From Pseudomonadota bacterium (lineage in GTDB: Bacteria; Pseudomonadota; Alphaproteobacteria; GCA-2746255): a stretch of 64,000 bases of DNA. The stretch covers positions 139,626 through 203,625 of the forward strand of contig JBFMHN010000005.1 in assembly GCA_040752895.1 (NCBI GenBank). Reading direction: 5' to 3'. Below are positions 2,482 to 62,873 of the stretch, piece after piece. Position numbers and translations under genes: made by a program. A model generated the notes under the pieces. That model made no database searches and was not told the DNA's origin. It saw only the letters and a list, made by a program, of their open reading frames with translations. The first letter of the stretch is position 1, and every line of letters begins with the position of its first letter.

Positions 2482-2491
2482 GGCGGCCGCC

Positions 2492-3616: not shown

Positions 3617-3621
3617 CTCCG

Positions 3622-15050: not shown

Positions 15051-15061
15051 TTCCGAGGTCC

Positions 15062-45968: not shown

Positions 45969-45979
45969 CCTGTCCATGC

Positions 45980-46560: not shown

Positions 46561-47220
46561 TTAATCCGTCATGACCAAACGGCGCATGTGGTTGCGGTAG
46601 CTGATCAGGCGCTGGTTGACCCTTTCCATATCGGCCTTCAGTTCGTCGTATTTCGGAAACTTTTGTTGAATCTCCTGTGGATCGATCACCAGATCGCCGC
46701 TGGTCTTGTTCAGCTCGTTCTCATACCAACGGCGGAATCGCGCTTGCCACATCGTCAGGTGAGGCCGTAGCCCCTCGTTCAGAACCTCGATCGATAGCTT
46801 GATAATCTTCTGGGTGCTGCTGTGCCGCACCTTGTTGACGGGGACCGATTTTACGAGGTCCCGAGTGACGGCGAAGAATTCGTACCAACTGTTATAGATT
46901 TCAGCGATGACGTCATGGTCGAAATCGATCGGCAATCCAATTTTCCGTGTGCTCAGCTCCACCCATATTGCATAAGCTACCTGGCGATCCGTCATGTTTG
47001 GTTTGAGTCGAAGCTTGCCGGTGCCCGTTCCTATCTCGGCTTGGTCGATCTCGAAATCCTTCCAGCTGGAGCCACCAGAAAACCAACGCCAGCCAGCATA
47101 GACGAGAACCGCCACCAAGAGCGCGATACCAACCCAGAAGCTGACTTGGATCGATACCGACCAGTCCGAAAGGAGCCGTACGGACAAGAGGTCGATATTC
47201 GATTGGCTTGTGGTGTCCAT
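46561..47220 (-). CDS. membrane-anchored uncharacterized protein (single N-terminal TM plus ~170 aa cytoplasmic domain)
   Basis: TM VSFWVGIALLVAVLVYAGWRWF. Begins 5 nt after the upstream TIR gene's stop. Low GC. Confidence 0.45.
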   Translation of the reverse strand: MDTTSQSNIDLLSVRLLSDWSVSIQVSFWVGIALLVAVLVYAGWRWFSGGSSWKDFEIDQAEIGTGTGKLRLKPNMTDRQVAYAIWVELSTRKIGLPIDFDHDVIAEIYNSWYEFFAVTRDLVKSVPVNKVRHSSTQKIIKLSIEVLNEGLRPHLTMWQARFRRWYENELNKTSGDLVIDPQEIQQKFPKYDELKADMERVNQRLISYRNHMRRLVMTD

Positions 47221-47224: not shown

Positions 47225-47779
47225 TCACTCGCACTGCCGGTTGTACGTGAAGCGATCTCTGGGATTTTCGATCAAATGGGCATGTGTCGTTCGCCGCTGA
47301 AACGCCGCCTCGATGGCCTGCCATAGCTCGTCCGACGATTGCGGGTAGGCCATCCAACGGGCGAAGCAATCGCTTCCGGCAGCCTTCTTTTCAGGGGTCA
47401 GCAGATTCCTGTTCAGGCGATCCGGAAAGGCGCCATCCTCGGGGAAGGCAGGCATCTTGATGGCAAGCAACCCATTGGCAAGCCCGTTCTGCGGCGCCCG
47501 CAGCGATGCCTGGATTTCCCAGTCGACGTAGCGCCTCGCCCATGTGCATCTGCCCAGCATCACCAGCGTCACAGTCGAGTCGCGAATGTAAAGTTCGCGG
47601 ATGCGTCGCATGACGTACTCGGGGTCAGTGCTGTCAATGATGTCCTGAGCCATTGTCTGCCCTAGTCCGCGAGCAATGAACAGATTCTGCCCGTGATCAA
47701 ATGTGTTAACAAAGCGATCAACCCACGGCTGGTCGGCATGGTGATATGAGACGAAGCATTTGCGTCTCGTTGCATTCAT
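47225..47779 (-). CDS. TIR-like domain protein (DUF1863 / ThsB-like), second copy
   Basis: KCFVSYHHADQPWVDRFVNTF and RRYVDWEIQASL are classic TIR_2 motifs. Confidence 0.65.
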   Translation of the reverse strand: MNATRRKCFVSYHHADQPWVDRFVNTFDHGQNLFIARGLGQTMAQDIIDSTDPEYVMRRIRELYIRDSTVTLVMLGRCTWARRYVDWEIQASLRAPQNGLANGLLAIKMPAFPEDGAFPDRLNRNLLTPEKKAAGSDCFARWMAYPQSSDELWQAIEAAFQRRTTHAHLIENPRDRFTYNRQCE

Positions 47780-47797: not shown

Positions 47798-50560
47798 CTA
47801 TTCCACCTTTACCGCATCGGCGAGGCCGAGTTCCTGCAGGACCTGCCGAATCTCGTTCGCAAGGCCGGTCGCGGAATCGGCAGAGACAGTGACCGAGAAC
47901 TCGAGTCCGATCCTGAGTTCCGAGCCGGAGCGGAGCTTTGGCAGAATCTTCGTACCAAGGCGGTTCCAGACCTCCGGGGGGACGGCGCCCACAACGCGGA
48001 GTGTCCGTGTTGAAGTTGCGGGCTCGGGGGCGGGGCCAAGCGTGGGACCAGGTTCCGAAACGGGCGGGACCGTGGGGCCCGGCTCGGGCTCCGGACTTGG
48101 GGTGGGCATCGCTGGCTTCCCGGCCCTGAGCGCTTCCGCCGTGCTCTTCCTCAACAGGAACACTCCGGCGTCGAAAGCGACCTCGTCAGACGCAACCGCC
48201 TCCTGGAACCAGATCCGCTCGTACGTGCCGTCGGCCTTCTTGCCCGATGCCAAGCCGAAATCGCCGCGTGTCACGAACTCGACGATCTTGGACTTCAAAG
48301 TGGCGTCGGGATCGACGAGCCGAGTCAGCGAGCCATTGAGAAAGCTCTGTCGAAGGCTCGCAAGGGGCCAGGCGCCCGAGTCCTTCAGCGCCGGTGGCCA
48401 GTTGCGCTCGATGTATCCAGCGCCGACCGACTCGTTCAGGAGCGCTTCGGACTTGAGGGCGGCGATGACGCGCCCGCAAAGCGTCTCGCCGCTTGACGAA
48501 TGTCCCGCACCGAGGTCGATCACCTTGAGCCCATCCGCTTCCTGGCCGTCGGCAAGGATGGCGAAGCGGTAGCCGCCCCAGACCTCGTCCTTGGCGGCCT
48601 CTTCCGCGTCTTTGACCTTCGACTGGAGTTCCGCCCGGTCATTGCGGTCGAACTCCCCGCCCAGCGTGCCATCGGCCACCTCGCGCGCGACCCGCCTCCA
48701 TGCGAGCGCGAGCTCCACCTTCTCGCGCAGATCCCGCCCTGGCTTCTTGAGGCACCACACGAGCGCACCCGGATAGAGTCGGGGCGACTTGCCGCGGCTT
48801 CGAGTCCACTCGGCGATCTGGGTGCGGAGCGAGCCGGTGCCGGACCATTCCGTTTCGGGATCGGCTGCGACGAGCGTCAATCTGGGCGTGTCAGGAATCT
48901 CCGCGCCGTCGCGCGGGAAGGGGACGACAGGGATGCTGGCGCCACGCCGGAACTCGTCCTCGACGAGCTTCCGCATGGCGGGTTTGACCTCTGTCTCATG
49001 GTCAAGGGACGCCCGACGGTCGCTCACAACCTTCTTCATCGTCGGCTGATAGCCGATCCGGAATCCGTCCGTCCCCACCTTGCGCAGGAAGTAGGAGCGG
49101 TCTTCAAGCGCGAAGGCGGCATTATCGATGGTCGTCGTATCCAGCTCCGGCTCGCCGAGCGCGAAGCGGAGCTCCGGGAGATGCGCGACCTTGTCGGTCT
49201 GCCCGCCCGACGATTCGAACAAGATCGCGGTGCCAACCCGCTTGTGAATGTCGCGGAGCGGTCCCTTGGTATCGGCGTCGAGCGCCCTCGCATGAGCCTG
49301 CTCGCCGGCGATATCTGTGTCGATCGCAGCGACGAGGCGGGACTCGCCGAGCTGGCCCAGCACGACGCTGCGGAAGCCCGGCTCGGCCAGCGGTGCCGAC
49401 CCGAGCGTGATCAACGGCTCGGTGCGCGCCTTGCGGAACGCGTCCTGGGCCGCCAGCGATATCCACTGGGCCAGCATCGCGAGCGTGCCGCGCGTCTGCT
49501 GGTACTGCGGCAGCGGCTGCCATTTCCGTTGGAAGACTGACAGCGTCGCCGGATGGAACGGGTAACACGTCTCGAAGCGGCGCTGGAGGAACTCGCGCGC
49601 CTTGGCCTCGGTCGCCGCGGAATCCACCGCTGTCCACTCGGGCGGGAGCTGGGCGCGCCGCTCGAAGCACCAGTCGCCAAAGGCCCGCGCGACGCTCTTG
49701 CGGATCCTTTCGCTGCCAAGGTCCTGGAACAGCCGCCGGCGCACGACCTCGCTGATCTCGGTCTCGTCGTTGGCGATCAGGTCCTTGGCGACGCGGCGCA
49801 CCACCTTCGAAATCTTGTCCTGCCACTCCTGATCCCACTCGGTCATCTCCACCTGGCTGCGGGGAAGGGAAATCACGCATGCGCCGTGCGTAGTCCCCGT
49901 CGTGGCGACGGTCAGGTTCTGAATGAACGCATGGAATGAATCAGCGCTGCCCCGGTGGCGATTGAGGAAGTTTAGGACCTCGTCGAATAGCAGAAGCACA
50001 GGTGCCCCGGCGGCCTGGAAGACCCGCGCGATCGCGTCGGTGCCCGGCGGCGTGGTTTTCGCCGAAGGACCCAGCGCCTCGACGCCCTTGTCTCCGGCGA
50101 GCTGGCGAGCGATGTCGATCCACGGCGTCTCACGCCCCTCGCGCGGATCCCATGCGTTGCCGACAAAGACCGCGACCTTCCCTTTGGGCACGGTTGCGAC
50201 GCCCGCCTCCCGCACAAGATCGGCCACGCCCGAATAGCCCGCTGCCGCCTCGCCATTGCTTACGAGGTGGTAGAGCGTCGTGAGCGTATGCGTCTTGCCG
50301 CCACCGAACTGGGTGATCAGCGTGAGCACCGGCGCGGTATTCTCGGTCTTTCCTGAGAGCCGCCGAAGCACCATTCCTGCATGCTCGCGCAACGCCCTGG
50401 TGAAGCAGGTGCGGGCGAAGAACTGGTCGGGCTTCCGGTAATCCTCCGGCGCCGTCCCGGCCACGACCTGCTCAAGCGCGATGGCGAACTCGTCGGGGTT
50501 AAACGACCGGCCTTCGCGGACTTCCTTGCGCGGCGTCGCGACCTTGTACCAAGGTTCCAT
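47798..50560 (-). CDS. DUF499 family ATPase (COG1483-like), defense-associated
   Basis: 920 aa. P-loop ITQFGGGKTHTL and Walker B LLLFDEVLNF. The protein-level assignment to the DUF499 family rests mainly on the P-loop context and the adjacent DUF1156 partner. Confidence 0.6.
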   Translation of the reverse strand: MEPWYKVATPRKEVREGRSFNPDEFAIALEQVVAGTAPEDYRKPDQFFARTCFTRALREHAGMVLRRLSGKTENTAPVLTLITQFGGGKTHTLTTLYHLVSNGEAAAGYSGVADLVREAGVATVPKGKVAVFVGNAWDPREGRETPWIDIARQLAGDKGVEALGPSAKTTPPGTDAIARVFQAAGAPVLLLFDEVLNFLNRHRGSADSFHAFIQNLTVATTGTTHGACVISLPRSQVEMTEWDQEWQDKISKVVRRVAKDLIANDETEISEVVRRRLFQDLGSERIRKSVARAFGDWCFERRAQLPPEWTAVDSAATEAKAREFLQRRFETCYPFHPATLSVFQRKWQPLPQYQQTRGTLAMLAQWISLAAQDAFRKARTEPLITLGSAPLAEPGFRSVVLGQLGESRLVAAIDTDIAGEQAHARALDADTKGPLRDIHKRVGTAILFESSGGQTDKVAHLPELRFALGEPELDTTTIDNAAFALEDRSYFLRKVGTDGFRIGYQPTMKKVVSDRRASLDHETEVKPAMRKLVEDEFRRGASIPVVPFPRDGAEIPDTPRLTLVAADPETEWSGTGSLRTQIAEWTRSRGKSPRLYPGALVWCLKKPGRDLREKVELALAWRRVAREVADGTLGGEFDRNDRAELQSKVKDAEEAAKDEVWGGYRFAILADGQEADGLKVIDLGAGHSSSGETLCGRVIAALKSEALLNESVGAGYIERNWPPALKDSGAWPLASLRQSFLNGSLTRLVDPDATLKSKIVEFVTRGDFGLASGKKADGTYERIWFQEAVASDEVAFDAGVFLLRKSTAEALRAGKPAMPTPSPEPEPGPTVPPVSEPGPTLGPAPEPATSTRTLRVVGAVPPEVWNRLGTKILPKLRSGSELRIGLEFSVTVSADSATGLANEIRQVLQELGLADAVKVE

Positions 50561-50573
50561 TGCGATCCCCCTC

Positions 50574-51533
50574 CTACGGTCTCTGCAGGCGCGCGAACAG
50601 GTCGGTCGCCGTTCTCTTCAATCGGGCCAAATTGGCGTAAGCCACGGGCTCAAACCCGCGACCGCCCGCGTACATCCGGTAGCGGATGCCGTCGGTCACG
50701 ATCACATCGCGCGGAATCCCGAGCGCCTCCACATACCCCTTCCCCTGTTCCAGCGCGCCTTCAACGCCCGCACCCAGGCGTTTGGCTTCGATCACGAGAT
50801 GACAGTTTTCCGGCGTGCGCGGCAGGGCCCGAAATACCGCGACGTCGATGTAGCGCCACTTGACGGCAATCCGCTCCGGCGGCCAGCCGAGCGCGCGCAA
50901 AAAAGGCACGATGAAATGGGCGATCAGCTCGTCCTCGCTCGGAGGTTCGCCAAAGGCCTGGGAATCCTGGAACAGCGGGACGAGATCGGCGGCCTGAGCC
51001 ACGATTCCCCGCAGCCCGTCAGGCACTTCATCGATCGGCGGTTCCTCGGCTGGAAGCTCAGGCAACGGTGCCGTTTGCCAATGCGTCGGCGGGGATTTGA
51101 TGAAGCGCTCCGTGAAATCGATCACGTCCTGGCTCCACACCCGCGAGCAGCGCGGCGGATTGGCGCCGAAGGCCTGGCCCGCGAACGTATGCGGCTCGGG
51201 GAGGCGGCACCAGCGCACCCGCCGGCCGTGTTGCAGGTCCCAGCCGTTCACGTCGTCGAACGCGTTCAGGTACAAGTAATCGCTGGCCACGAGACCGACC
51301 GCCGCGATCGTCGCAAGACCCGTGCGCAGCAGGATCGCATCTCCTACCGTGACTTCGCTTGCGAAGCGCCGTACGAAGCCGCCCTCGAACTCGTTATCGT
51401 CGCGTTCGGGTTTCCAGGCCCCTGCATCGCCCGGGCCGATCAACACGACGCCGTGCTTGAGCAGAACGTCGGCATAGGACCGCGATGCCGGCCCGGCCGA
51501 GACTTGCCACACTGTCCGAGCAGAGACGGTCAT
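50574..51533 (-). CDS. PD-(D/E)xK nuclease-like protein
   Basis: C-terminal HLVIEAKRLG (ExK) with an upstream acidic residue context. ATG at MTVSARTVWQ forms a 4-6 nt overlap with the stop of the upstream DUF1156 gene. Confidence 0.45.
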   Translation of the reverse strand: MTVSARTVWQVSAGPASRSYADVLLKHGVVLIGPGDAGAWKPERDDNEFEGGFVRRFASEVTVGDAILLRTGLATIAAVGLVASDYLYLNAFDDVNGWDLQHGRRVRWCRLPEPHTFAGQAFGANPPRCSRVWSQDVIDFTERFIKSPPTHWQTAPLPELPAEEPPIDEVPDGLRGIVAQAADLVPLFQDSQAFGEPPSEDELIAHFIVPFLRALGWPPERIAVKWRYIDVAVFRALPRTPENCHLVIEAKRLGAGVEGALEQGKGYVEALGIPRDVIVTDGIRYRMYAGGRGFEPVAYANLARLKRTATDLFARLQRP

Positions 51534-51537
51534 CGGT

Positions 51538-54500
51538 TCACCTCGGCACCGCGAGAAGCATCGCGTCGAGGAGGCGCTTCTCCTCGCTGCCCCTCGGGTA
51601 GAGAGCGGAGAGGGCATTGGCGAGCCGCAGGAAGTCCGGGCTGCGCTCCTGCTCGGCCTTCAGCAGCGCACGCAGCGCATTGGTGCGGCCGCCCGCCTGG
51701 AGCAGCATGGCCGCGTGGATGCGGTCGAGGGTCGTGGCCTCCCGCGCAGAAGCCAAGCTTTCTTCCGAGACGTCGACGGCCATGCGCCCGCTGCGGCCCC
51801 GTGCGCCGCGGCCGCGCACTTTCGGAGCCGCCTCCATTTCGGGGAACAGCATGCCCTGAAGGGGATTGACGCCAGTCGAGGTTCCCAGCTCGAGCTGAGT
51901 GGCAACCGCCTGGGCGCCTTCGTCGCCGAAGAGCTGCTTCGCCCGCTCGGCGATGGGCAGCAGGCGCACGACGCCCTTCTTCGTCTCGATGACGCGGCCT
52001 TCCCACTTGGGCAAGTCGATTCCGAGCGGCTGGGCAAAGCGACGAACCACGTCGAAGACCAGCGTGAAGCCCTTCGCCTTGCCGCGTGACGCGCCTTCTT
52101 CGTCCTCCTCGTCGTCCGCCGCCTCCTCGTCCTTGCCGTCGTCGCTTGCGTTCTCCGCTACTTCGCCGTTCGTGCTCTGTAGCGTCCAGAGGAACAGCGC
52201 CGTGAGCCGCGCGTCCTCTTCTACGGCGCCGGCCGCACCGTTGCGCGCGCGCGCTTCGGCGGTGCCGAGCACCTGGCCGAGCGCGCTCCGACCCACGACC
52301 TCCCACACCTTCTCCAGGTACTCGGCGAGCGCAACCTCGCGCCCGTCGGCCGTTTCGACTTTGGCATAACGACTGAAGATTTCGAGCGCCGGTCCGATGC
52401 AAGCGAAGACGAGGTCGGCGCCACGGACGCCCTCGCCCTGCAGGTGCTCCATCCAGTCGCCAACGCGCTTCGGCAGCTCTCGCAGAACGTCGGCCCAGTC
52501 GCCGATCGGCGCGTCGTCGGGACGCGGGCGGCAGATGAGATGGACGCTGGTTGCGAGGGCGGCGGACTCTCTCGCGCGCAATCGAGAGCCCATTTCTGTT
52601 GCAATTGGCCACGACCCGGTGATTGTCCAACCGCCACGGATCATGCCGGAGAGCAGCGCTTCCCAGCCCTCCGTCGTCTTATGAGCAAAAACGACTGAAC
52701 CGACACCGTCTTCGCACAGTACTCGGCGACCCTCGCCAAAGGCGCGCCCCATAGCGGTTTCGAAAAAAGCCTTTGTCTTTGGCTGGCCATCCTCGGCTTC
52801 ATACCGCTCATCTTGCACGATTTCTTGACGTTTCGGCGTAAGTGGATTCGCCGCGTCAAACGGATCACGAAGGGCGTTCCGCTGAGCGAGAGACCGCTTG
52901 AGCCAGACAAAGAAAAAATCCGCCAATTCCGCGTAGCCAATCGCATCATAGTATGGCGGGTCGGTAAACCAGACCTGACAAGACGCGTCGGGTAACGGCG
53001 ACCTTGTGGCATCCGCGACTTGGACCTGTGCGGTTGAGCTGGTTGGAAAGTAACATTGGGAAATAGTATGACCGCTTCTTTCAACTGAGCTGTCGAAACT
53101 TCCGCTGGAGGACTCAGTAAGAACCGCCTCAGCGTAATCCCAAACCATTGAAATGGCTTGGCGCGCAAAGAGATTTACTGGACACTCAGCATCAAGTTTC
53201 CACCGAACAAATGAATTTCCAAGGTCGATCGATTTGTTAAGGCACAGCGCCATCAAATCTTGCAGTGCTGGTTGCTCTTCCAGTGTTGAGCATATTGTCT
53301 TCGCAAGGGCATGCGCGGTGGCGAGCTGTCGCGGGTTTAGCAAGTCCTTCCACTGCTTGACTCCGTAGTTGGGCACCCTAAAGCAGTTTGTATTTCTCGG
53401 CGGCAACGGTTCATCCGGCACCGGACAGAGACCCTGCTTCCCGTTGCGTTCCCATTCGTCGAGTAGCTTCGCCACGTGCACACGCGCCTTGCGCACCGCC
53501 TCGTAATCGCGCTCAGTCGGCAGCCGATAGTGCCGACCGGTCTCGCCCGGCTTTAGCGTCACCACCGCAAGCATCCGTGCTCCTGCCGAGCGTTGACCCT
53601 TCTCGTCGAACACCACGTCTGCACCGCCGCGCTGGGTGGAAAGTTGTGCTCGTACTCGCTCGGGTGGCAGGACCGCACCGCAGGAGATGCAGGTCGCCTT
53701 GGCGCGAGTCACGGTGCCGCCCGGCACATCCTTCTCAGTCTTCGGCTCGAAGACCTGGAACTCGACGCGTGGCGGCTGGCCCTGTGAACGTTCGACCCGG
53801 TGGCGGAGCGCTCGCTTGCGGCTCGCCTTTTTGCTGAGCCAGAACGAACGCGCGAGCGGAATTTCGGCGCCGCAGTTGGGCGACTCGCAGCGTACGGTGC
53901 GCACCCAGAGATAGGCGATCGGCACCGCACCATCCGGGTCCTTCGGATAGAAGCCGGCGAGTTCCTTTTCCGCCTTCTTCTTGATCTCCGCGCCGATGAG
54001 GCGAAGCTCTTCTGCGAGCTTCGGGCCATGGCGCGGGATGTCCTCTAGCATCACTTTCAGGATCAAACAGGCGACGGGGTTGAGATCGCTCGCGAAGGCC
54101 TCGCAGCCCACCCGCAGCGCTTCCAGAGGGATCGAGCCGCCACCGGCGAACGGGTCCACGACCAGTGGCGGCTCTTCCCCATGCGCCGCCTTCACCAGCG
54201 CGCGGCTGACATCGAGATAGGTGCGGTTGGACGCGAGATCCCAGTTCGCAAAGTCGGCGACGAATTTGAGCAACGCCTTGCGCAGGTCCTCGTCCGTTGT
54301 GCCTGGATTGCAACCTGCGACCTGCCGCAGGAGCTTTTGCGCCTGCTCCTTGAACTCACGCGGACACAGTGGATCGCACGGATCGGGCCAGAGGAGACCG
54401 AGCAGGACCGCCCGGCTCGACGCCAATGGCCGCCGCGCCCACCAAAGATGGAGCGTGCTCGGGTGCCCATGACGGATCGACTTCTCCCGTGCCGCGTGCC

Positions 54501-54561
54501 GCGACACTTCGGCGATCGGGAAATCCACTTCGGCAAGACGCTTGCAGTCTTTGGGGATCAT
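51538..54561 (-). CDS. DUF1156 family (COG1743) adenine-specific DNA methyltransferase
   Basis: N-terminal MIPKDCKRLAEVDFPIAEVSRHAAREKSIRHGHPSTLHLWWARRPLA is the DUF1156 signature. Downstream motif I VVDPFAGGGSIPLEA and later TDPPYYD (motif IV). Confidence 0.8.
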   Translation of the reverse strand: MIPKDCKRLAEVDFPIAEVSRHAAREKSIRHGHPSTLHLWWARRPLASSRAVLLGLLWPDPCDPLCPREFKEQAQKLLRQVAGCNPGTTDEDLRKALLKFVADFANWDLASNRTYLDVSRALVKAAHGEEPPLVVDPFAGGGSIPLEALRVGCEAFASDLNPVACLILKVMLEDIPRHGPKLAEELRLIGAEIKKKAEKELAGFYPKDPDGAVPIAYLWVRTVRCESPNCGAEIPLARSFWLSKKASRKRALRHRVERSQGQPPRVEFQVFEPKTEKDVPGGTVTRAKATCISCGAVLPPERVRAQLSTQRGGADVVFDEKGQRSAGARMLAVVTLKPGETGRHYRLPTERDYEAVRKARVHVAKLLDEWERNGKQGLCPVPDEPLPPRNTNCFRVPNYGVKQWKDLLNPRQLATAHALAKTICSTLEEQPALQDLMALCLNKSIDLGNSFVRWKLDAECPVNLFARQAISMVWDYAEAVLTESSSGSFDSSVERSGHTISQCYFPTSSTAQVQVADATRSPLPDASCQVWFTDPPYYDAIGYAELADFFFVWLKRSLAQRNALRDPFDAANPLTPKRQEIVQDERYEAEDGQPKTKAFFETAMGRAFGEGRRVLCEDGVGSVVFAHKTTEGWEALLSGMIRGGWTITGSWPIATEMGSRLRARESAALATSVHLICRPRPDDAPIGDWADVLRELPKRVGDWMEHLQGEGVRGADLVFACIGPALEIFSRYAKVETADGREVALAEYLEKVWEVVGRSALGQVLGTAEARARNGAAGAVEEDARLTALFLWTLQSTNGEVAENASDDGKDEEAADDEEDEEGASRGKAKGFTLVFDVVRRFAQPLGIDLPKWEGRVIETKKGVVRLLPIAERAKQLFGDEGAQAVATQLELGTSTGVNPLQGMLFPEMEAAPKVRGRGARGRSGRMAVDVSEESLASAREATTLDRIHAAMLLQAGGRTNALRALLKAEQERSPDFLRLANALSALYPRGSEEKRLLDAMLLAVPR

Positions 54562-57500
54562 TCTTTCGGTCCTTCGAAGGGCGCTTGGTCCTCGCGGAGC
54601 TCCATCGGCGTCGTCATCGCGTTCACCGAAAGGTAGTAGTGCGCGACCTTCGTCACCTCGTTCCAGTCGAGGCGCGCCGGGTCGCGGACCGGTTCCTGCA
54701 GGCGGGGAGCGGTGTCGCAGCCGGTGACGACGTAGAGCCAATAGCAGTCGCGCCGATCCTCGGCGACGCGCCGTTCGTTGGGCGTGAGCAGAATGGTCCC
54801 GGTCGAGGCGCCAAGCCCCTTCACCTCGATCAGGCGCAGCTCGCCCGAAGCGAGATCGAGGCTGGTGATGTCATAGCCCAGGTTCTTTGCGGATACGTCG
54901 AAAACCTGCCGACCCAGCGCCGCCTCGTGCTCCATGACGACGCGCATGGCGATCACCTCGGTCTCGAAGTTCGGCTTCAGTCGTCGCACCTCGGGCGCTT
55001 CCCGCTCGGGATGCGGCAGGATGAGAACGCTGGCCAGCCGCTCGACGGCCTGAAGCGTGAGTGCCCGCTGGCGTTCGAGGTCGGTGCGGCGGCGGTCGCG
55101 GCGGGCGAGCAGCTCCGCGTGTCGCGATTCCGCCTGCGCGAGGCGGCCTTCTGCGCCGGGGAGCTTCTGATCAACGTCTGCGGCAGCACGGCCGATCTCC
55201 TCGTCGGCGCGCTGGAGCAGTTCGGTCAGCGACAGTTCGACATGCGCACTGACGCGCTCGACTTCGGTGAGCCGGTCCTTGCGCGTCTCTTCGAGGAATG
55301 GCGCGAGCGCGTTCTCGTGGAGCCAGCTCGCTGCTTCGGGGAGAGTCGCGACCGCGGGCATTTCCGCCGGCGGATCGGCAGGGGCGAAGTTGCCGAGCAG
55401 CCCAGGTTCCTGGAGGCGAGGTGTGCCATCGTTGGCAATCTCCACCGCGAAAAGGCGCTCATGGATGACTTGGCCCAGCCCGTCCACGACCCGGGCTCGG
55501 TAGAAATCGACGCGTGCCGCGTGTTCGTGCTGCAGCGAATAGAAGGTTGCGCCCTTGCCGAGGACATTCAGCGCCTGGGCGTGCGTATGCCGCCGGACCG
55601 ACTCGAACAGAGGATGGCCGGGCGTGACCCACTCCAGCTTCTCCAGTTCGGCCGTGTCGCGATCGGTCGAGCAGCGTGGATAGCGGTCCGCAAGAGCCGG
55701 GAGCTTCCAATTCGCCTCCTTCTCGTAGCGGCGGAGCACTGAGGGCGTACGTGCCGGCTCAAAGGTATGCGGCAGGCTCGCCACCGGCCTGAGCGTGAAC
55801 GGCACGAACTCGGCTGCCTCGCGCAGGAAGCGGGCGATGGTCTCGGGCACCACGCGACGCTCTTGCGCTCGAGCACGCCGTTCGATCAGCATTTCGAGGT
55901 TGAGCTTCTTGCTCGCGAGCCCCTCCAGAGCATTCTGGCAGATCGCGCGGAACTGGCCTTCGTCGACATCGCGGAGCAGGCGATCTTCGAGGTCGGCATC
56001 GCCCAGCCGGCCGGCGTAGTAGTCGCGCAGGATGCGCTCGACGTGGGCGGCGGGCAGGACCTCGCCCACCACGTTGAAGACGGCGTCGTCCTCCAGCGCA
56101 TCGCGAATTTCCTGCAGCTTCTCCAGCAGGCGCTGCAGGACGCGGCCTTCGATGGTGTTGGTCGCTACGAAGTTGAAGATCAGGCAGTCCTTGCGCTGGC
56201 CGTAACGGTGGATGCGCCCCATCCGCTGCTCCAGCCGGTTCGGGTTCCACGGGATGTCGTAGTTGAACAGGATGTTGCAGACTTGCAGGTTGATGCCCTC
56301 GCCGGCAGCCTCGGTGGCCACGAGGACCTGGATCGCACCTTCGCGAAACTGCTGTTCGGCATAGAGCCGCGTGCCCGGCTCGTCGCGCGAGCCGGGCTTC
56401 ATGCCGCCATGGATGGTGCCGACGCGGAAGCCCCAGGACGTCAGTCGGTTCACGAGATAGTCCAGGGTGTCCTTGAATTCGGTGAACAGGAGCAGGCGCT
56501 GGTCCGGGTGATCGAAGAAGCCCTCCTTGTGGAGCAGCTCCTTCAATTCCGAGAGCTTCGCTTCCGAGCCCGCTTCCTCGACTGCCTGCGCCTCGCCGGC
56601 CAGTCTGCGAAGCTCCTGAACCTCCTGGCGAACCTGGTCGGCACTGGCTGCGAGCGTAACGGCCTCCAGCATCGCTTCGAGGTGCTCACGCTCGCTTTCC
56701 TCCATTTCCTCCAGTTCCTCCGGATCGGGGAGATCCGGCGGCGCCTGGCGGGCGAGGTCCTGTGCCCGCTTGAGACCCTCTTCCAATCGACGCGCGCGAT
56801 TTTCAAGTGACCGGCGCATGGCGTAGGTGCTCGATGCGAGCCGGCGCTGGTAGAGGGACATCAGGAACCCGATTGCCCGGGCGCGCGGGTCCTCACCCTC
56901 GGCTGCAGCGCGGGCGCTCTCGCGCTTCACGAAGCGCGTCACGTCGCGGTAGAGGTCGAATTCGGCACCGTCTATCTGGAAATCCACCGTGTGCGGGATG
57001 CGCTTGGTGAAGATCGGCTCAGCGGCCCAAGTGCCGTCGCCCCGCCGCTCGGGGAAGTAGACCATCGCCTCCTTGGTGCGACGCAGGTAGAAAGGCGCGC
57101 GCCGACGGTCCATAGCCTCCCTGATCGACCTCACGTCCGCGTAGGCGTCGGCATCGAGGAGCTGAAGGAACAGGCTGAAGTTCTGCGGGTCGCCCTTGTG
57201 GGGCGTCGCCGTCAGCAGCAGCATGTGATCCGAGGTGTCGCGCAGCAGCTCGCCCAGCCGGTAGCGCAGGCTCTTGTGCGACTCGTCGGCGGCTGACATG
57301 CGGTGCGCTTCGTCGACGATGACGAGGTCCCAGTGGACCTGCCGAAGACCGGGCAGGATGTCGGACCGTTTTGCCAGATCGAGCGACGTGATCACGCGGC
57401 TGCGTTCCAGCCACTGGTTGACGCCGAACTGGTCGCGGATGTCCTGGCCTTTCATTACCAGGAACTTCGCGTCGAACTTCTCCTTCAGCTCGCGCTGCCA

Positions 57501-57995
57501 TTGGAAGGCGAGGTTGGCCGGGCAGACGATCAGGATACGTTCGGCAAGTCCACGAAGCTCCAGTTCCCGAATGAGAAGCCCCGACATGATCGTCTTGCCC
57601 GCGCCAGCGTCGTCGGCCAGCAGAAAGCGCACGCGTGCGAGCTTGAGCAGATAGTCGTAGATCGCCTCGAGCTGATGCGGCAGCGGGTCGACCCGCGATA
57701 TCGATAGGCCGAAATAGGGGTCGAACTCGTAGGCGATGCCGAGCGCATAGGCCTGAAGCCCAAGGCGGAGCAACCGACCATCACCATCGAAGGAGCGCTG
57801 CGGTTCCAGAACGCTGAGGCGCTCCAGGTCGCTGGCGGTCATCGTCACTTTGCGGAACCGCTCGGAGTTCGAGCCCACGAGCCCGACGATCCAGCTTGTC
57901 GGTCCGTTGGCTTGTACCGTCTCCACCCGCATCGGCTCGTTGAAAAGCGGCCCGGTGAGGATCTGTCCTTCGCGGATAGGAGGCTCGCCGCTCAA
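54558..57995 (-). CDS. SNF2-family helicase with C-terminal DUF3883-like domain
   Basis: Motif I ADDAGAGKT, DEAH box VIVDEAHRM, motif VI QRMGRIHRYGQ and C-terminal LRLIEVKGLGASTGTILLTPNE. The coordinate-adjacent DUF1156 gene begins 4 nt inside this ORF's last codons (stop/start overlap). Confidence 0.75.
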   Translation of the reverse strand: MSGEPPIREGQILTGPLFNEPMRVETVQANGPTSWIVGLVGSNSERFRKVTMTASDLERLSVLEPQRSFDGDGRLLRLGLQAYALGIAYEFDPYFGLSISRVDPLPHQLEAIYDYLLKLARVRFLLADDAGAGKTIMSGLLIRELELRGLAERILIVCPANLAFQWQRELKEKFDAKFLVMKGQDIRDQFGVNQWLERSRVITSLDLAKRSDILPGLRQVHWDLVIVDEAHRMSAADESHKSLRYRLGELLRDTSDHMLLLTATPHKGDPQNFSLFLQLLDADAYADVRSIREAMDRRRAPFYLRRTKEAMVYFPERRGDGTWAAEPIFTKRIPHTVDFQIDGAEFDLYRDVTRFVKRESARAAAEGEDPRARAIGFLMSLYQRRLASSTYAMRRSLENRARRLEEGLKRAQDLARQAPPDLPDPEELEEMEESEREHLEAMLEAVTLAASADQVRQEVQELRRLAGEAQAVEEAGSEAKLSELKELLHKEGFFDHPDQRLLLFTEFKDTLDYLVNRLTSWGFRVGTIHGGMKPGSRDEPGTRLYAEQQFREGAIQVLVATEAAGEGINLQVCNILFNYDIPWNPNRLEQRMGRIHRYGQRKDCLIFNFVATNTIEGRVLQRLLEKLQEIRDALEDDAVFNVVGEVLPAAHVERILRDYYAGRLGDADLEDRLLRDVDEGQFRAICQNALEGLASKKLNLEMLIERRARAQERRVVPETIARFLREAAEFVPFTLRPVASLPHTFEPARTPSVLRRYEKEANWKLPALADRYPRCSTDRDTAELEKLEWVTPGHPLFESVRRHTHAQALNVLGKGATFYSLQHEHAARVDFYRARVVDGLGQVIHERLFAVEIANDGTPRLQEPGLLGNFAPADPPAEMPAVATLPEAASWLHENALAPFLEETRKDRLTEVERVSAHVELSLTELLQRADEEIGRAAADVDQKLPGAEGRLAQAESRHAELLARRDRRRTDLERQRALTLQAVERLASVLILPHPEREAPEVRRLKPNFETEVIAMRVVMEHEAALGRQVFDVSAKNLGYDITSLDLASGELRLIEVKGLGASTGTILLTPNERRVAEDRRDCYWLYVVTGCDTAPRLQEPVRDPARLDWNEVTKVAHYYLSVNAMTTPMELREDQAPFEGPKE

Positions 57996-58115
57996 CGGAC
58001 ACTCCTTTGGCCTTCAACTGCCTGAACCTGAGTCTGGGCAGTGCGACCTGAAAGGCGCTCGGAGTCGTCGTCCAACCGGTTACCGAATTCAAAGACGTCC
58101 ATCCCCTCTCCCCGC

Positions 58116-59030
58116 CTATTCACCCGCCTGAGCGCCGCCCATGGCCTCGCGGACTTCCTTCCGGTTCGCGAGCACGATGTGCTGATCCTGCGGGCGCTTG
58201 CGGGCTGGCTCTCCGTCGAGCCCCAGTCGTTTCAGGAAGTAGTACAGAAATGCCTTCGGGACCTCGATCGCGCGCTCTCCGTCTTGCATGCCGTAGTCGA
58301 GTTCGACCCCCCGGCGCTGGCCTTCCGACAGTCCGGGATGCGGAGCGATCACCACGGTCACCGACTCGGACCAGGCCCGATCGCTGGCCACCTCGATCGC
58401 GTGCGGCTTGTTCTCCCTGATGTCGAGAATCCGGGCGAAGACGAAGTCCTTGAAGGTCTCGTCGTTGTGGCAGAAGGCGCGCGCATGCCAGCGGAAGCCG
58501 TCGAACCCAAGGGCGTGGGGGGTGATCCAACGCCATTGCGGGTCCGGTTTCGACATCGACTGGTACCGGATCCGGATCGCCTGGCGCTCGCGAATTGCGC
58601 TCAAGACCGCCTTGAGGGTCCGCGTGTCGACGCTCCGGCCGGGGGCTGGCACGACCCGGAAGTCCGGCGGCTCAGCGAGCCACGCCTCCTCCGGCCTGAT
58701 CGTCCTGTTGGCGATGGAATGCAGCTGGGCGAGGTAGCGGTCAGAGTCCCCGACGTCGAAGGCCGACTGGAACTCGCGGGTTGCCAAGTAGCACTTGAGG
58801 CTCGAATCGTAGGTGAGATTAGTGGGCGCGAGTTCCTGGTAACGCGCGAGGTCGGCGGACGCTTGGGGCGTGGAAATCCCAAACCGGTCAGTGAGGTCGC
58901 TGCGGTTGATGCGCCCTTCCCAAAAGAGCCGGAAGTCGATGAACTCGAGCCGCTGCTCGATGCCCCACCTCAGGTCCTCGCGACCCTCGTCCTTGACCCT
59001 CTTCAGTCCAGTACCGCGCCTCACGGCCAC
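58116..59030 (-). CDS. WYL-domain transcriptional regulator (BrxR/CapW-like)
   Basis: N-terminal wHTH (RINRSDLTDRFGISTPQASADLARY) and WYL-type segment IRYQSMSKPDPQWRWITPHALGFDGFRWHARAF. Precedes the SNF2 gene by ~120 bp on the same strand. Confidence 0.65.
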   Translation of the reverse strand: MAVRRGTGLKRVKDEGREDLRWGIEQRLEFIDFRLFWEGRINRSDLTDRFGISTPQASADLARYQELAPTNLTYDSSLKCYLATREFQSAFDVGDSDRYLAQLHSIANRTIRPEEAWLAEPPDFRVVPAPGRSVDTRTLKAVLSAIRERQAIRIRYQSMSKPDPQWRWITPHALGFDGFRWHARAFCHNDETFKDFVFARILDIRENKPHAIEVASDRAWSESVTVVIAPHPGLSEGQRRGVELDYGMQDGERAIEVPKAFLYYFLKRLGLDGEPARKRPQDQHIVLANRKEVREAMGGAQAGE

Positions 59031-59258
59031 TCCTGCGTGCGTAAAGGAAGTTGATTGACTGGCAGTCCTATCTCGTATAGTTTCTTATCCCATCATCGAG
59101 GCCTCGTCAACCGGTGAGCAAGGAAGCACGAACGCAGGGACCACCATGCCGGCGCCAAACCCTACAGCGGCCGATTGCGCCTCGACGCCGGAATCGGCGC
59201 AGGGTAAAAGCTTCTCAAGCGGCGTCGATCACAGTGGCGGCTGTCACTCAAGAGCAGC

Positions 59259-60308
59259 TTGTCGCGGCTCTTGAAGGTTACGGATGTAGAGATTCGGAAT
59301 TGGAAGCGGGGGCAGCGGGCAATGGCGACAGCGGATCACGTTAAGGCCCTGATCCGAAGTCACGCCGAAGGCGATGATGAACGATTCTACGCCATTGCCA
59401 TGCAGGTTGCCGCCCAAGCCGCCCGGCAAGGGCACACGAAATTCGCTCAGGAATTGCGTGATTTGGTCGATCAGGCAAAGGCTCGCGCGAAGGCCGTGCC
59501 CTCCGGCCAAAGGACGAAGCCGGTCCCGATTATACAGCCACGCGGAGAGCTGGCCGGGCTGCTGACTGCAGCCTTCCCAAAGGGCCGCTTGTCCGATATG
59601 GCGCTGGACGAAGCGATCCGCTCGCGGATCGACCGCATCCTTCTCGAACAGCGGCAACGCGAGACCATTCTCGCGCACGGCATGTCGCCGCTCCGCAAGC
59701 TGCTGCTCGTTGGCCCGCCAGGCACAGGTAAGACAATGACCGCCGCGGCCTTGGCAGGCGAACTGAGCGTGCCTCTGTTCACCATTCAGCTCGACGGACT
59801 GATCACGAAGTACCTTGGCGAGACGGCCGCCAAGCTGCGCCTGATTTTTGAGTCAATTCAACAGACCAGGGCGGTCTACCTCTTCGACGAGTTCGATGCT
59901 CTGGGTGGGGAGCGCGCGGCCAGAAACGAGGTCGGGGAGATCCGGCGCGTACTGAACTCATTCCTTCAATTCCTTGAGCAGGACGACTCTGACAGCATCA
60001 TCGTCGCTGCGACCAATCATCCGCAGATCCTCGATAGGGCACTGTTTCGCAGGTTCGACTCCGTAATCGAGTATCGTTTGCCATCGGAGGACATTGCTGA
60101 AAAGGTGATGCGCTCGCGCCTTGCGCTTCTCGACACTTCTCAGGTCGAGTGGAACAAGGCTGTGGAAGCGGCGGAGGGTCTGAGCCATTCGGATATCACG
60201 CGCGCATGCGAGCACGCTGCCAAGAACGCCATTCTTCAGCACCACACGCGGATCGATACAGCCGAGCTTATTGAAGCCCTGATCGAGCGACGCGCCGCCC
60301 ATCAGTAG
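59259..60308 (+). CDS. AAA+ ATPase (IetA-like)
   Basis: Walker A LLLVGPPGTGKT, Walker B VYLFDEFDAL and sensor region. Alternative start ~59322 (MATADH...). Confidence 0.7.
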   Translation: MSRLLKVTDVEIRNWKRGQRAMATADHVKALIRSHAEGDDERFYAIAMQVAAQAARQGHTKFAQELRDLVDQAKARAKAVPSGQRTKPVPIIQPRGELAGLLTAAFPKGRLSDMALDEAIRSRIDRILLEQRQRETILAHGMSPLRKLLLVGPPGTGKTMTAAALAGELSVPLFTIQLDGLITKYLGETAAKLRLIFESIQQTRAVYLFDEFDALGGERAARNEVGEIRRVLNSFLQFLEQDDSDSIIVAATNHPQILDRALFRRFDSVIEYRLPSEDIAEKVMRSRLALLDTSQVEWNKAVEAAEGLSHSDITRACEHAAKNAILQHHTRIDTAELIEALIERRAAHQ

Positions 60309-60329
60309 CGTCTCTGGGGGTGCTGAACG

Positions 60330-62873
60330 ATGCCAGCCCCGAGAAATCGTAAGCACCTCCTCGTTCGAGCCGACCCCTCGGCAGAGGCATACAGGCCGCA
60401 TCCAAGGAAGATTGAGCAGCCTAGCTACGCCGGTCCGCCAGACCGGCGGCGACATGCCGCTGCTCTTCGCGATGCGTTGACGGAGGCCCGCAGACAAGCC
60501 GAAGCGAACCGAGAAGCCGTCGACATCTCAGTGCATGGGGCGCAGCCGGGTCTATATGTCGAGTTCGAAAGCCCTCCCGGCGTCGATTTGAAACTGGAAT
60601 CTCTTGAGGACCGACGCCGCGGTATAGAAGTGGTAGCGGTGCGGCGCGTTCCGGTAGAGCCCGAAGCTCCCCCAACCCAGTTCGCTACGGTCTTCGTGCC
60701 CGACGGCGCGCTCAGGCATTTCTTCGATCGCTTTCAACAGTACACGGAAGAGACGACACGGAAAGGCGAACCCCGTCACAAGGACATGGTGGACCGCATT
60801 GCCGCGCTCCGGAAAGCGACGCTACGAGCCCTTTGGACTGACGCCACCGAAGTCTATCCAGATGAGGCAGAGACGATCTGGTGGGAGGTGTGGCTCCGCC
60901 GCCATGATGGCAGCGAACTGCAGCGGCTTCTCGAATTCGCCGAACAGACTGGTCTCGATGTTGGGGAGCGACGACTAGGTTTTGATGACCGGATCGTGAT
61001 CTTAGTCCGGGGTACCATTGCCCAACTTTCAGCGTCGCTGGACGTTCTTAACGACCTCGCCGAGGTGCGCAAAGCCAAGGAAAGTGCCACGTTCTTCGCC
61101 GATGCTTCGCCGGAGGAACAGGCCGGCTGGCTGAATGACCTGAAAGAACGCGTGATACCACCGACGACCGAAAATGCACCTGCGGTTTGTGTCCTTGATA
61201 CCGGCGTTACGTGGGCGCATCCTCTGCTTGAGGACCTCATTGCACCTAACGACGCGATGGCCGTGGACCCCGCTTGGGGTGGGCACGACGATGGTGGCGG
61301 CCCTGGCAATATGGGGCACGGGACCGAAATGGCTGGCCTTGCGGCCTACGGTGACTTGGCGCCCCACCTTGGTTCCCGAGAACCCGTGCTGATCCGCCAC
61401 CGCCTTGAGTCGGTGAAAATCCTTCCTCCTAGAGGAGCGAACCCTCCGGAGCTGTACGGTGCGATCACAGCGCAGGCGGTCACACGGCCCGAGATCAATG
61501 TACCTCAGCGCCTGCGCGTCTTCTCCATGGCAGTCACTGCAACTGACGAGCGCGATCGCGGTCAACCAACGTCGTGGTCGGCCGCGATCGACGCGCTCGC
61601 TGCTGGGCGCGCGTTTGACCCGGCGACCCACGGCCTCGTCTATTTGGACGAGGCCGAGGAAGGCGCACGCCGGCTGTTCATTCTTAGCGCCGGAAACGTC
61701 GCGCCGGACCACCTGCAGGATGATCATCTTGGCCGCAGCGATGTGGAGACCGTGCACGATCCGGCCCATGCCTGGAACGCCCTTACCATAGGCGCCTGCA
61801 CCGAAAAGGCCACCATCGGAGACCCTACCTGGAATGGTTGGTCGCCGCTGGCGCCCCCTGGCGATCTGTCACCCTGGAGCACGACTTCCGTCACGTTTCA
61901 GGACCGATGGCCGATCAAGCCCGACGTTGTGTGCGAAGGCGGAAACGTAGCTGCAAATGGGGGAGCGTTCGAAAATGCTGTCCCTGATCTATGCCTGTTG
62001 TCGACCTACTTCCAACCGGCTCAAAAGAGCTTCGTCCTGTCGTGGGCCACAAGCGCTGCTACTGCACAAGTTGCCCGTATGGCGGCAATCATCAGGGCGG
62101 AGTATCCGGAGTACTGGCCTGAGACCGTCCGAGGTCTGATCGTTCACTCTGCAGAGTGGACCCGAGCGATGCAGGCACACTTGCGTGGCGCGGGAGGAAA
62201 GCGTGCACGAGCGAAGCTGGTCCGTCGTTATGGCTTTGGTCTCCCGAACCTCCATCGCGCATTGCGCAGCGCCAACGACGCCCTGACCTTGATAGCACAG
62301 GCGACGATTCGACCCTTCTCCGAAGGCAAGATGCGGGAGATGCATCTGCATGAGTTGCCATGGCCAAAGGAAGTGCTGGAAGAGTTGGGGCAGACGCCGG
62401 TCCGGCTTCGCGTCACCTTGTCATACTTTATAGAGCCTAATCCCGGTCGCCGCGGATGGCAGAAGCGGCATCGATACGCGTCGCATGGGCTGCGTTTCGA
62501 CCTGAAAGCTCCAACCGAGACGGTGGATGAGTTTCGCAAGCGCCTTAATCAACGTGCGCTCGACGAGGATGAGGGCAAGCCGGACACTACAGGTGCGACC
62601 GAATGGTTCCTCGGCGAGATGGCGCGCAACAAGGGCTCAATCCATTCCGACATGTGGGTCGGTACGGCCGCCGATCTGGCAGAGCGAGGAGTGGTCGGGA
62701 TCTATCCTGTGTCCGGATGGTGGAAGGACCAGCCCAAGCGCGACCGCAGCGACCTTGGTGCGCGGTACTCTCTTTTGCTTGCGATAGAGACAGAGGCAGA
62801 AGGCGTGGACATTTGGACTCCCGTGGCCCAGCAGATCGGCATTCCTGTCGAAGATGCAGTTATCGAGATCTGA
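60330..62873 (+). CDS. S8 family subtilisin-like serine peptidase (IetS-like)
   Basis: Catalytic triad contexts: Asp VCVLDTGV, His GHGTEMAGLAAYG and Ser SWATSAATAQVARMAAI. Confidence 0.7.
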   Translation: MPAPRNRKHLLVRADPSAEAYRPHPRKIEQPSYAGPPDRRRHAAALRDALTEARRQAEANREAVDISVHGAQPGLYVEFESPPGVDLKLESLEDRRRGIEVVAVRRVPVEPEAPPTQFATVFVPDGALRHFFDRFQQYTEETTRKGEPRHKDMVDRIAALRKATLRALWTDATEVYPDEAETIWWEVWLRRHDGSELQRLLEFAEQTGLDVGERRLGFDDRIVILVRGTIAQLSASLDVLNDLAEVRKAKESATFFADASPEEQAGWLNDLKERVIPPTTENAPAVCVLDTGVTWAHPLLEDLIAPNDAMAVDPAWGGHDDGGGPGNMGHGTEMAGLAAYGDLAPHLGSREPVLIRHRLESVKILPPRGANPPELYGAITAQAVTRPEINVPQRLRVFSMAVTATDERDRGQPTSWSAAIDALAAGRAFDPATHGLVYLDEAEEGARRLFILSAGNVAPDHLQDDHLGRSDVETVHDPAHAWNALTIGACTEKATIGDPTWNGWSPLAPPGDLSPWSTTSVTFQDRWPIKPDVVCEGGNVAANGGAFENAVPDLCLLSTYFQPAQKSFVLSWATSAATAQVARMAAIIRAEYPEYWPETVRGLIVHSAEWTRAMQAHLRGAGGKRARAKLVRRYGFGLPNLHRALRSANDALTLIAQATIRPFSEGKMREMHLHELPWPKEVLEELGQTPVRLRVTLSYFIEPNPGRRGWQKRHRYASHGLRFDLKAPTETVDEFRKRLNQRALDEDEGKPDTTGATEWFLGEMARNKGSIHSDMWVGTAADLAERGVVGIYPVSGWWKDQPKRDRSDLGARYSLLLAIETEAEGVDIWTPVAQQIGIPVEDAVIEI

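Follow-up and report, generated by a model that had tools for sequence, protein, structure and literature searches.

A predicted Hma (Type-1 BREX-related) operon with a candidate DUF8426 reader-nuclease and an upstream BrxR-family gene in a defence island beside an alphaproteobacterial prophage

The Hma system was first proposed via PADLOC (Payne et al., 2021) and has since been renamed the Type-1 BREX-related (BR) system, whose three-gene core is a restriction-modification (R-M)-like relative of Type-3 BREX (PMC12839542, NAR 2026). The neighbourhood of COG1743, DUF499, SNF2 and nuclease genes had been noted earlier by Iyer and Aravind and by Bell et al. (PMC7641849), and archaeal operons of this composition are adjoined by stand-alone EVE proteins (Bell et al., 2020, PMC7641849). 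Auxiliary or backup nucleases are nested in Type-1 BR loci, and the ATPase carries a HEPN fusion in ~56% of Type-1 taxa (PMC12839542). HmaA is the sole Hma component tested experimentally: the Halomonas meridiana protein lowers T4 yield ~100-fold in E. coli, and this activity needs motif VI and the NOV_C nickase (PMC11232893). Here we analyze a predicted Hma operon at positions 47798-59030 of a 64,000-nt stretch of alphaproteobacterial DNA (contig JBFMHN010000005.1, positions 139,626 to 203,625; hereafter the window), together with a DUF8426-family gene at the hmaB-hmaC junction and an upstream brxR gene on the same strand.

Assignment of the locus to Hma

The region holds five co-directional minus-strand genes, which bears out, coordinates included, the description in an earlier note of four genes with a WYL regulator upstream on the same strand. 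Start codons were revised against homologs and ribosome-binding sites. In the order of the operon the genes are brxR (58116-59024), encoding a wHTH-WYL-WCX transcriptional regulator of 302 aa; hmaA (54558-57995), encoding a 1145-aa SNF2 helicase with a C-terminal NOV_C/DUF3883 PD-(D/E)xK nuclease; hmaB (51538-54561), encoding a predicted DUF1156 N6-adenine DNA methyltransferase of 1007 aa; the DUF8426 (PF28530) gene (50574-51533), encoding a 319-aa protein with a PUA-like N-domain and an HsdR_N-like C-domain; and hmaC (47798-50560), encoding a 920-aa DUF499 ORC/Cdc6-like AAA+ ATPase without a HEPN fusion. An alternative GTG start for brxR lies at 59030, but we favor the GTG at 59024 because the homologs are 302 aa long. 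A 120-nt minus-strand spacer (57996-58115) separates brxR from hmaA and carries an AAGGAG ribosome-binding site 7 nt ahead of the hmaA TTG.

The four genes of the hma operon are tightly packed for co-translation. The sole true overlap is the 4-nt ATGA at the hmaA/hmaB junction; a 4-nt gap separates the hmaB stop from the ATG of the DUF8426 gene, and the 13-nt gap between the DUF8426 stop and the hmaC ATG includes GGAGGGGG. Three genes had previously been described as joined by stop/start overlaps. The extra overlaps were seen because the longest open reading frames (ORFs) had been taken (TTG 54741, ATG 51617), and with the revised starts just hmaA and hmaB overlap. GC content is 63-66% in the operon genes, 69% in the adjacent prophage and 53-61% in the neighboring defence genes.

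We assign the locus to Hma, or Type-1 BR, because its best PADLOC matches are HmaA, HmaB and HmaC, its motifs are intact and components of other systems are missing. PADLOC, proposed earlier as a check on the region, identified HmaA with 8.1e-176 (residues 7-1091), HmaB with 3.3e-113 and HmaC with 6.7e-94 (residues 1-822). Pfam detected SNF2-rel_dom (3.6e-18), Helicase_C (5e-24) and NOV_C, the former DUF3883 (1.1e-20), in HmaA, DUF1156 (6.6e-22) in HmaB and DUF499 (2e-12) in HmaC. The SNF2 motor with a DUF3883 tail and the DUF1156 and DUF499 memberships, all read from the DNA alone by the earlier note, were thereby confirmed. That note had presented the latter two as a long-predicted but uncharacterized pair; the domains are right, but the system already bears the names Hma and Type-1 BR and its HmaA has been tested (PMC11232893; PMC12839542).

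All three proteins are recognizable as Hma components by PADLOC, Pfam and motifs alike. On the minus strand, HmaA retains its Walker A GAGKT (57591-57605), DEAH (57303-57314) and motif VI QRMGRIHRYGQ (56196-56228), as well as the NOV_C D...ExK signature, formed by DITS (54861-54872) and IEVK (54819-54830). HmaB retains the S-adenosylmethionine (SAM) motif DPFAGGGS (54133-54156) and the catalytic DPPY (52951-52962), and HmaC the Walker A GGGKT (50291-50305) and Walker B LLLFDE (49979-49996). As described for Type-1 BR, the helicase carries the nuclease residues D1042 and E1057-x-K1059, and PglZ, PLD and DUF3780 are missing. Pfam, PADLOC and NCBIfam scans of the locus proteins found no HsdS/HsdM, Res/Mod, DrmA/DrmB (DUF1998), PglZ, BrxA/B, PLD/HKD or DUF3780. 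With its gene set and catalytic motifs intact, the locus has the complete architecture with an identifiable regulator that had been claimed for it.

Compared with Hma as defined by PADLOC and in Halomonas, the window locus encodes the three proteins, matched full-length, on the same strand, and its relatives share an insertion hotspot at the hmaA-hmaB junction, where the median gap is 1452 nt. Unlike the Halomonas locus, into which Septu is inserted, the window copy has overlapping hmaA and hmaB genes; only 6 of 41 relatives are similarly compact. It also differs from these references in its upstream brxR gene and in the DUF8426 gene at the hmaB-hmaC junction. Like other Type-1 BR systems, it combines a DUF499 ATPase, an N6-methyltransferase and a Swi2/Snf2 helicase with a C-terminal PD-(D/E)xK restriction endonuclease, and it is devoid of PglZ, iSTAND, HKD and DUF3780; the missing HEPN fusion on HmaC sets it apart from them.

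A conservation profile located a hypervariable target-recognition insert (TRD) in HmaB between the SAM motif and DPPY (aa ~361-510; 53032-53481, minus strand). Identity across relatives falls to 0.17-0.49 in this segment, as opposed to 0.8-0.9 elsewhere in the protein. A near-identical Hma with DUF8426 occurs on a 434-kb metagenome contig (Ga0209381_1000033, L097), with HmaC 99% and HmaA and DUF8426 97% identical to those of the window. Its HmaB carries another TRD, the sequence beyond the hmaC stop is unrelated, and it is a natural specificity variant; nucleotide identity is 90-94% on both flanks of the HmaB segment, while the segment itself has been replaced. HmaC also has a variable C-terminal region (aa 781-920; 47801-48220, minus strand), in which identity across relatives is 0.34-0.58. 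Co-variation of the TRD with the HmaC C-terminus or DUF8426 was considered and rejected: the distances showed no correlation (Spearman ~0; partial Spearman -0.18; Mantel p 0.97). This lack of correlation suggests that sequence specificity resides in HmaB alone, in a swappable segment. Either the restriction complex would use HmaB for recognition, as happens in Type III R-M and BREX, or methylation status would be read generically.

The BrxR regulator gene and its promoter boxes

The BrxR protein of the window matches WYL in both Pfam (3.6e-13) and PADLOC (8.9e-20). Its homologs, 53-93% identical, combine PF26109 WHD_BrxR, PF13280 WYL and PF26107 BrxR_CTD (WCX), and among the 120 full-length homologs listed, precomputed Pfam annotation gives this three-domain set in all but two truncated ones. 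The regulator is thus of the BrxR/CapW type, as had been recognized from the sequence. Like other members of this family (PMC9122589; PMC9122601), it has a wHTH-WYL-WCX architecture and a conserved region at its own promoter, its gene directly precedes a defence operon on the same strand, and its family is associated with many different systems. Homologs 80-93% identical to it precede quite different cargo. Across the wider set of homologs (53-93%), the cargo includes DISARM (Magnetococcus marinus), SNase, a set of UvrD-PD-ExK, NOV_C and methylase, and other genes, none of which is Hma. What distinguishes the window copy is its Hma partner, a pairing absent from the 80 + 80 related Hma loci sampled. 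An HMM search found no BrxR-family protein in 80 related Hma loci, nor did any other regulator recur upstream of hmaA in them, and the idea of a regulator conserved at that position among relatives was dropped.

Alignment of seven brxR upstream regions revealed the order TTGAC, GTTAAGAAACTATAC and AGTCAATCAACTTCCTTTAC, invariant or near-invariant despite the different cargo. In the window, the putative promoter/operator region spans 59041-59112 on the minus strand, where these conserved blocks are followed by a GGAG Shine-Dalgarno sequence; the -35-like TTGAC lies at 59106-59110, the GATAAGAAACTATAC box at 59075-59089 and the AGTCAATCAACTTCCTTTAC box at 59041-59060. Each box is found a single time in the 64 kb of the window, with 0.05 and 0.00 occurrences expected by chance. 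The boxes surfaced by comparative alignment only; generic scans of the intergenic regions for inverted repeats, sigma-70 promoters and terminators yielded nothing convincing. Acinetobacter BrxR binds a pseudo-palindrome that overlaps the -35 element upstream of its own gene (PMC9122589). The window boxes parallel that site in lying near brxR's own promoter, but they differ from it in sequence. Judging from the aligned upstream regions, BrxR and its conserved promoter boxes appear to move together, forming a portable control cassette.

How far this control extends is a separate matter. The locus had been called WYL-regulated; a BrxR-family gene does lie upstream on the same strand, but regulation of Hma is deduced from that position, and for this locus only. 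It is plausible that transcription from the brxR promoter reads through into the hma genes and controls them. Cargo begins 15-85 nt downstream on the same strand in all BrxR loci sampled, and the same arrangement is seen here; a terminator scan found no terminator-like hairpin in the 120-nt brxR-hmaA spacer; and published BrxR/CapW regulators repress the downstream operon (PMC9122589). These observations speak against a reading in which BrxR regulates itself and/or the divergent ietAS genes and leaves the hma genes to a constitutive promoter of their own within the spacer. We regard that reading as unlikely, yet it has several facts on its side, since BrxR and ietA share a ~300-nt divergent intergenic region, box searches of the window found no second BrxR box in the spacer ahead of hmaA, and related Hma loci, having neither BrxR nor a recurrent regulator, indicate that Hma can work without one. 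A second defence operon is, moreover, often divergent from BrxR homologs, as with a QatABCD-like operon (L088) and a trio of SMC, HATPase and response-regulator genes (L086).

DUF8426 at the hmaB-hmaC junction

The DUF8426 protein has no match in the local Pfam, PADLOC and NCBIfam libraries, but its homologs are labeled PF28530/DUF8426 in precomputed Pfam annotation. The family counts 1493 matches at 90% clustering and 781 clusters at 50% identity; we found no mention of the name in the papers searched. A first AlphaFold run with 26 sequences of 77-95% identity gave an unusable model (pLDDT 56.7), and a second, with a 67-sequence alignment that included representatives 30-60% identical, reached a pLDDT of 95.5 and a pTM of 0.89. 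Foldseek searches of the PDB with this predicted model matched the C-terminal half to 3H1T, an N-terminal nuclease fragment of HsdR (E 1.9e-4), and the N-terminal half to the EVE proteins 1WMM, 1ZCE and 2GBS (the EVE proteins named being PH1033, Atu2648 and Rpa0253), as well as to YTH N6-methyladenine (m6A) readers and ASCH. At the sequence level, Pfam gave no match of DUF8426 to EVE, YTH or ASCH, and a profile search against the PDB was non-significant (HsdR 3H1T E 0.82, MmeI E 0.92), although it aligned ExK...Q correctly.

The PUA-like (EVE/YTH/ASCH-like) N-domain covers aa 1-155 (51069-51533) and the HsdR_N-like PD-(D/E)xK C-domain aa ~195-319 (50577-50951), with the nuclease residues in SEDE (50928-50939), IDVA (50838-50849) and IEAK (50781-50792), all on the minus strand. 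Conserved throughout the family are the nuclease residues E200/E202, D230, E249-x-K251, Q263 and D281-G282 and the reader residues W9, G14, G33, G35, G38, G97-W98, H102 and W108. The product had been put forward as a PD-ExK nuclease candidate, and the 3H1T match, the invariant residues and the PF28530 label agree with this; that description was incomplete, having missed the PUA-like reader domain. The model points to a modified-base reader domain joined to a PD-(D/E)xK nuclease, a Type IV-like architecture. Type IV enzymes with PUA-like readers (EVE-, YTH- and ASCH-McrB; EVE-nuclease fusions; PMC7641849) likewise fuse a PUA-superfamily reader to a nuclease. In DUF8426, unlike these, the reader sits on an HsdR_N-type PD-(D/E)xK domain within a single 319-aa protein, and there is no McrB GTPase.

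Two samples bear on the role of DUF8426. The first, ascertained through DUF8426 itself, comprises loci in 80 GTDB species from more than 20 phyla, one archaeon included. The order hmaA-(inserts)-hmaB-DUF8426-hmaC holds in all of these loci, and their proteins are 56-92% identical to those of the window; the Hma clade is spread across these more than 20 phyla by horizontal transfer. DUF8426 and hmaC are separated by a median of 13 nt, with 40 nt or less in 57 of 70 loci, and identities co-vary across loci (HmaA-HmaC r 0.96, DUF8426-HmaA r 0.79, DUF8426-HmaC r 0.73). These loci suggested that DUF8426 is a core fourth subunit. Because loci found through DUF8426 are biased by ascertainment, we added a second sample of metagenome loci ascertained through hmaC, in which 64 close relatives (73-99% identity) had enough upstream sequence. 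DUF8426 is present in 31 of these, always immediately upstream of hmaC and in several cases as a 3' remnant, and is missing from the other 33 (73-86% identity). Since about half of the hmaC-ascertained loci do without DUF8426, its status as a core subunit was set aside as the main reading.

In loci without DUF8426, hmaB abuts hmaC or the slot is filled by other cassettes, most commonly an ABC-ATPase with DUF4276; the alternatives include HEPN/nucleotidyltransferase (MNT), PDDEXK_3, DUF1828/1829, a HigB-like toxin and a pair of TIR and 219-aa proteins. Distant Hma systems, such as that of a Bradyrhizobium plasmid, also have no DUF8426, and distant DUF8426 relatives are stand-alone genes, one of them near a Tn7-like element in Cupriavidus metallidurans. 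DUF8426 is optional, given its absence from 33 of 64 relatives, the empty or otherwise filled slot and the stand-alone relatives, and among the several interchangeable accessory modules of the hmaB-hmaC junction, a second hotspot besides that between hmaA and hmaB, it is the one seen most often. Such module swapping fits the "auxiliary/backup nuclease" theme of PMC12839542; neither the PUA-like + HsdR_N-like DUF8426 cassette nor the hmaB-hmaC slot is named in its main text or in the supplementary text searched.

Partial copies of the gene were seen in several loci. A short 3' piece of DUF8426 directly abuts hmaC in L109 (5907-5987) and L143 (5838-5984), shortened copies are present in L131 (5105-5746) and L132 (1829-2470), and L118 has a fragment (2388-2486). 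Cassette replacement may leave behind the DUF8426 segment that bears the hmaC translation signals.

A different reading takes DUF8426 as an integral fourth subunit of an Hma subclade, whose pocket reads the m6A mark of HmaB or its absence and either informs HmaC and HmaA or provides a second-strand cut to the HmaA nickase. The tight spacing to hmaC, the invariable position directly upstream of hmaC in the hmaC-ascertained loci and the co-variation with HmaA and HmaC are all in its favor, as are the YTH m6A readers among the structural matches and the fourth gene of Type-2 BR systems, DUF3780, which in some cases carries a fused ASCH/PUA or RAMA reader. That the HmaB TRD co-varies with no component fits a sequence-independent methyl reader or HmaB itself as the specificity subunit. 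A nuclease triggered by host m6A would be toxic to its own cell, which would require the reader to be inhibitory; this demand, the 33 close relatives in which hmaB abuts hmaC or is followed by unrelated cassettes, and the stand-alone distant members make an integral subunit rather improbable. Slightly more doubtful still is a specific form of this idea, in which DUF8426 is the self/non-self sensor of the subclade, reading HmaB's N6-methyladenine in any sequence context and licensing or vetoing cleavage by HmaA and by its own nuclease. Such a sensor would explain how HmaB can swap recognition domains freely without change in HmaC, HmaA or DUF8426.

Proposed mechanism, genomic setting and significance

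That the locus is instead a variant of a classical system (Type I/III R-M, DISARM, BREX or the Gao "RL"/Type-2 BR system) is highly improbable: HmaA also matches DrmD (3e-122), BrxHI/II (7e-107) and NCBIfam DISARM_DrmD (4e-107, under the 610-bit cut-off), and HmaB and HmaC match the NCBIfam "anti-phage-associated" DUF1156 (213 vs 1000 bits) and DUF499 (88 vs 1200 bits) models far under their cut-offs, but the HmaA, HmaB and HmaC models win by a wide margin, the locus has none of the components searched for above and Type-1 BR is defined by the C-terminal NOV_C nuclease of its helicase. A Type I/III R-M variant, which the earlier note had named among the findings that would overturn its own, lacks support, as neither a specificity subunit nor HsdM or Mod was found, the ResIII match to HmaA is to a generic helicase domain and the EcoAI HsdR model gives 23 bits, its cut-off being 550. 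The likeness to DrmD is limited to the SNF2 part (360 vs 610 bits), and no DUF1998 protein is encoded in the locus, so DISARM does not apply; a weaker match to DpdE is well under its cut-off. The Gao "RL"/Type-2 BR system (PLD-helicase, DUF1156, DUF499, DUF3780), to which the NCBIfam "anti-phage-associated" models are linked, resembles the window locus in its homologous methylase and ATPase and in having a fourth small gene. Unlike it, the window has no PLD/HKD nuclease on the helicase and no DUF3780.

We consider it probable that the locus is an intact Hma/Type-1 BR system, an R-M-like anti-phage system in a defence hotspot beside a prophage, in which HmaB marks self, HmaC and HmaA act on unmarked DNA, DUF8426 is accessory and BrxR represses. 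Under this reading, HmaB would N6-methylate adenines within a sequence that its swappable target-recognition insert determines and so label the host's own DNA. Unmarked incoming DNA would be found and nicked or degraded by HmaC, the ORC/Cdc6-like ATPase that is related to BrxC, together with HmaA, which combines a SNF2 translocase with a C-terminal PD-(D/E)xK nickase and would be the effector nuclease. DUF8426 would most likely be an embedded Type IV-like modification-dependent enzyme directed against phages whose hypermodified DNA evades the methylation arm. BrxR, bound to the conserved boxes in its own promoter region, would repress the brxR-hmaA-hmaB-DUF8426-hmaC transcript until a ligand of its WYL domain lifts repression.

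Several observations weigh against parts of this proposal. T4 grown in HmaB-expressing cells is not shielded from HmaA, and HmaA alone is protective (PMC11232893); because HmaA alone suffices and HmaB has no protective effect, methylation-based self/non-self discrimination is unproven for Hma. The Foldseek E-values for the reader domain of DUF8426 are modest (1.7e-3 to 1e-2), and the co-variation of DUF8426 with HmaA and HmaC, together with its strict 13-nt coupling to hmaC, would fit a true subunit as well. The 80 related Hma loci are devoid of BrxR, the link between BrxR and Hma is drawn from gene position, and BrxR could equally regulate ietAS, given the shared divergent intergenic region.

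The first 42 kb of the window are occupied by a lambda/RcGTA-like prophage (~5000-42000, 69% GC). Its genes include those for a Toprim/DUF927 primase (9756-12644), terminase gpA (20090-22180), a lambda-type portal (22401-23870), a tape measure protein (31487-33931) and a Phage-tail_3/Rcc01698_C (Rcc01698-like) tail protein (36551-40045), as well as AAA_24, DUF2460, a baseplate hub and two ParB-methylases. The latter are tandem plus-strand paralogs (14966-17714), each combining ParB_N with N6_N4_Mtase, with ~70% nucleotide identity and a 1396-nt period; these orphan methyltransferases could alter sensitivity to restriction systems. Just downstream of the primase gene, at 12670-13084, are five copies of a 23-nt repeat (CxxTGTGGCAxCTGTGGCCAxTx) that resemble the iterons of a phage origin of replication. 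The tail host-specificity protein is directly followed by a plus-strand ORF of 571 aa (40047-41762) that has no Pfam match and contains three ~440-nt internal repeats (67-73% identical), likely a repetitive tail-fibre or receptor-binding protein. Three plus-strand genes at 502-4398, the left end of the window, encode a 659-aa SMC_N/AAA_23 ATPase, a 374-aa protein that combines HEAT with HATPase_c and a 258-aa response-regulator protein. In Magnetococcus marinus MC-1, three genes with these domains lie divergent from the BrxR homolog (L086, 5634-9609). PADLOC gives the window trio weak matches only (Ppl, mad3, LmuB), and it may be an uncharacterized defence system that recurs beside BrxR cassettes.

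Beyond the prophage, a defence island extends from 43.4 to 63 kb and comprises, in order, MazG-MazG_C, UDG and Nmad2; TIR, a 219-aa protein and TIR; Hma; BrxR; and IetAS. No att repeats or tRNA genes were found at the island borders or within the window. MazG + MazG_C (43429-44649, plus), a UDG-superfamily protein (44646-45338, plus) and Nmad2 (45358-46170, minus) make up a trio associated with nucleotide modification, which may be a prophage-borne DNA-modification or defence cassette. The following three-gene minus-strand module, which starts 18 nt downstream of hmaC, encodes a ThsB-like TIR protein (47225-47779), a 219-aa protein with an N-terminal transmembrane helix, no Pfam domain and 2666 homologs (46561-47220), and a second ThsB-like TIR protein (45980-46456; PADLOC ThsB 2.7e-67). 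No ThsA was found with this module, which may be an undescribed Thoeris-like system. The order TIR-219aa-TIR is repeated in Iodidimonas (L177) and Mesorhizobium (L178), and the pair that occupies the hmaB-hmaC slot, found in L165 and L166, is a diverged form of the TIR and 219-aa genes. On the other side of the locus, divergent from brxR, the plus strand encodes the AAA ATPase IetA (PADLOC 1.8e-78) and the subtilase IetS (3.6e-34) at 59259-62873, with the true ietA start probably near 59322.

In Iodidimonas muriae (L177), the block TIR-219aa-TIR-Nmad2-UDG-MazG is likewise conserved next to lysis and tail genes of a prophage, but the position of Hma is taken by a Type I R-M system. For this reason we rejected, as the main interpretation, that the TIR-219aa genes downstream of hmaC are part of the Hma operon, and we place Hma, BrxR and IetAS in a defence hotspot at the prophage end and not in the phage proper. 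A phage-borne origin of Hma was likewise discarded: megablast found no match in phage genomes, and IMG/VR contained one weak partial match, to DUF8426. Hma of the window's clade is essentially absent from viral collections.

Hma is an already known system, and the comparative findings added here do not change its category. Hma/Type-1 BR has been reported in thousands of prokaryotic taxa, yet of its proteins the helicase-nuclease alone has been tested. The window locus, being compact and intact and having a recognizable regulator, is a convenient cloning template for studies of Hma mechanism. For the family as a whole, the hmaB-hmaC junction is a second slot for accessory genes, and its commonest occupant is DUF8426, an uncharacterized reader-nuclease as predicted from its modeled fold.

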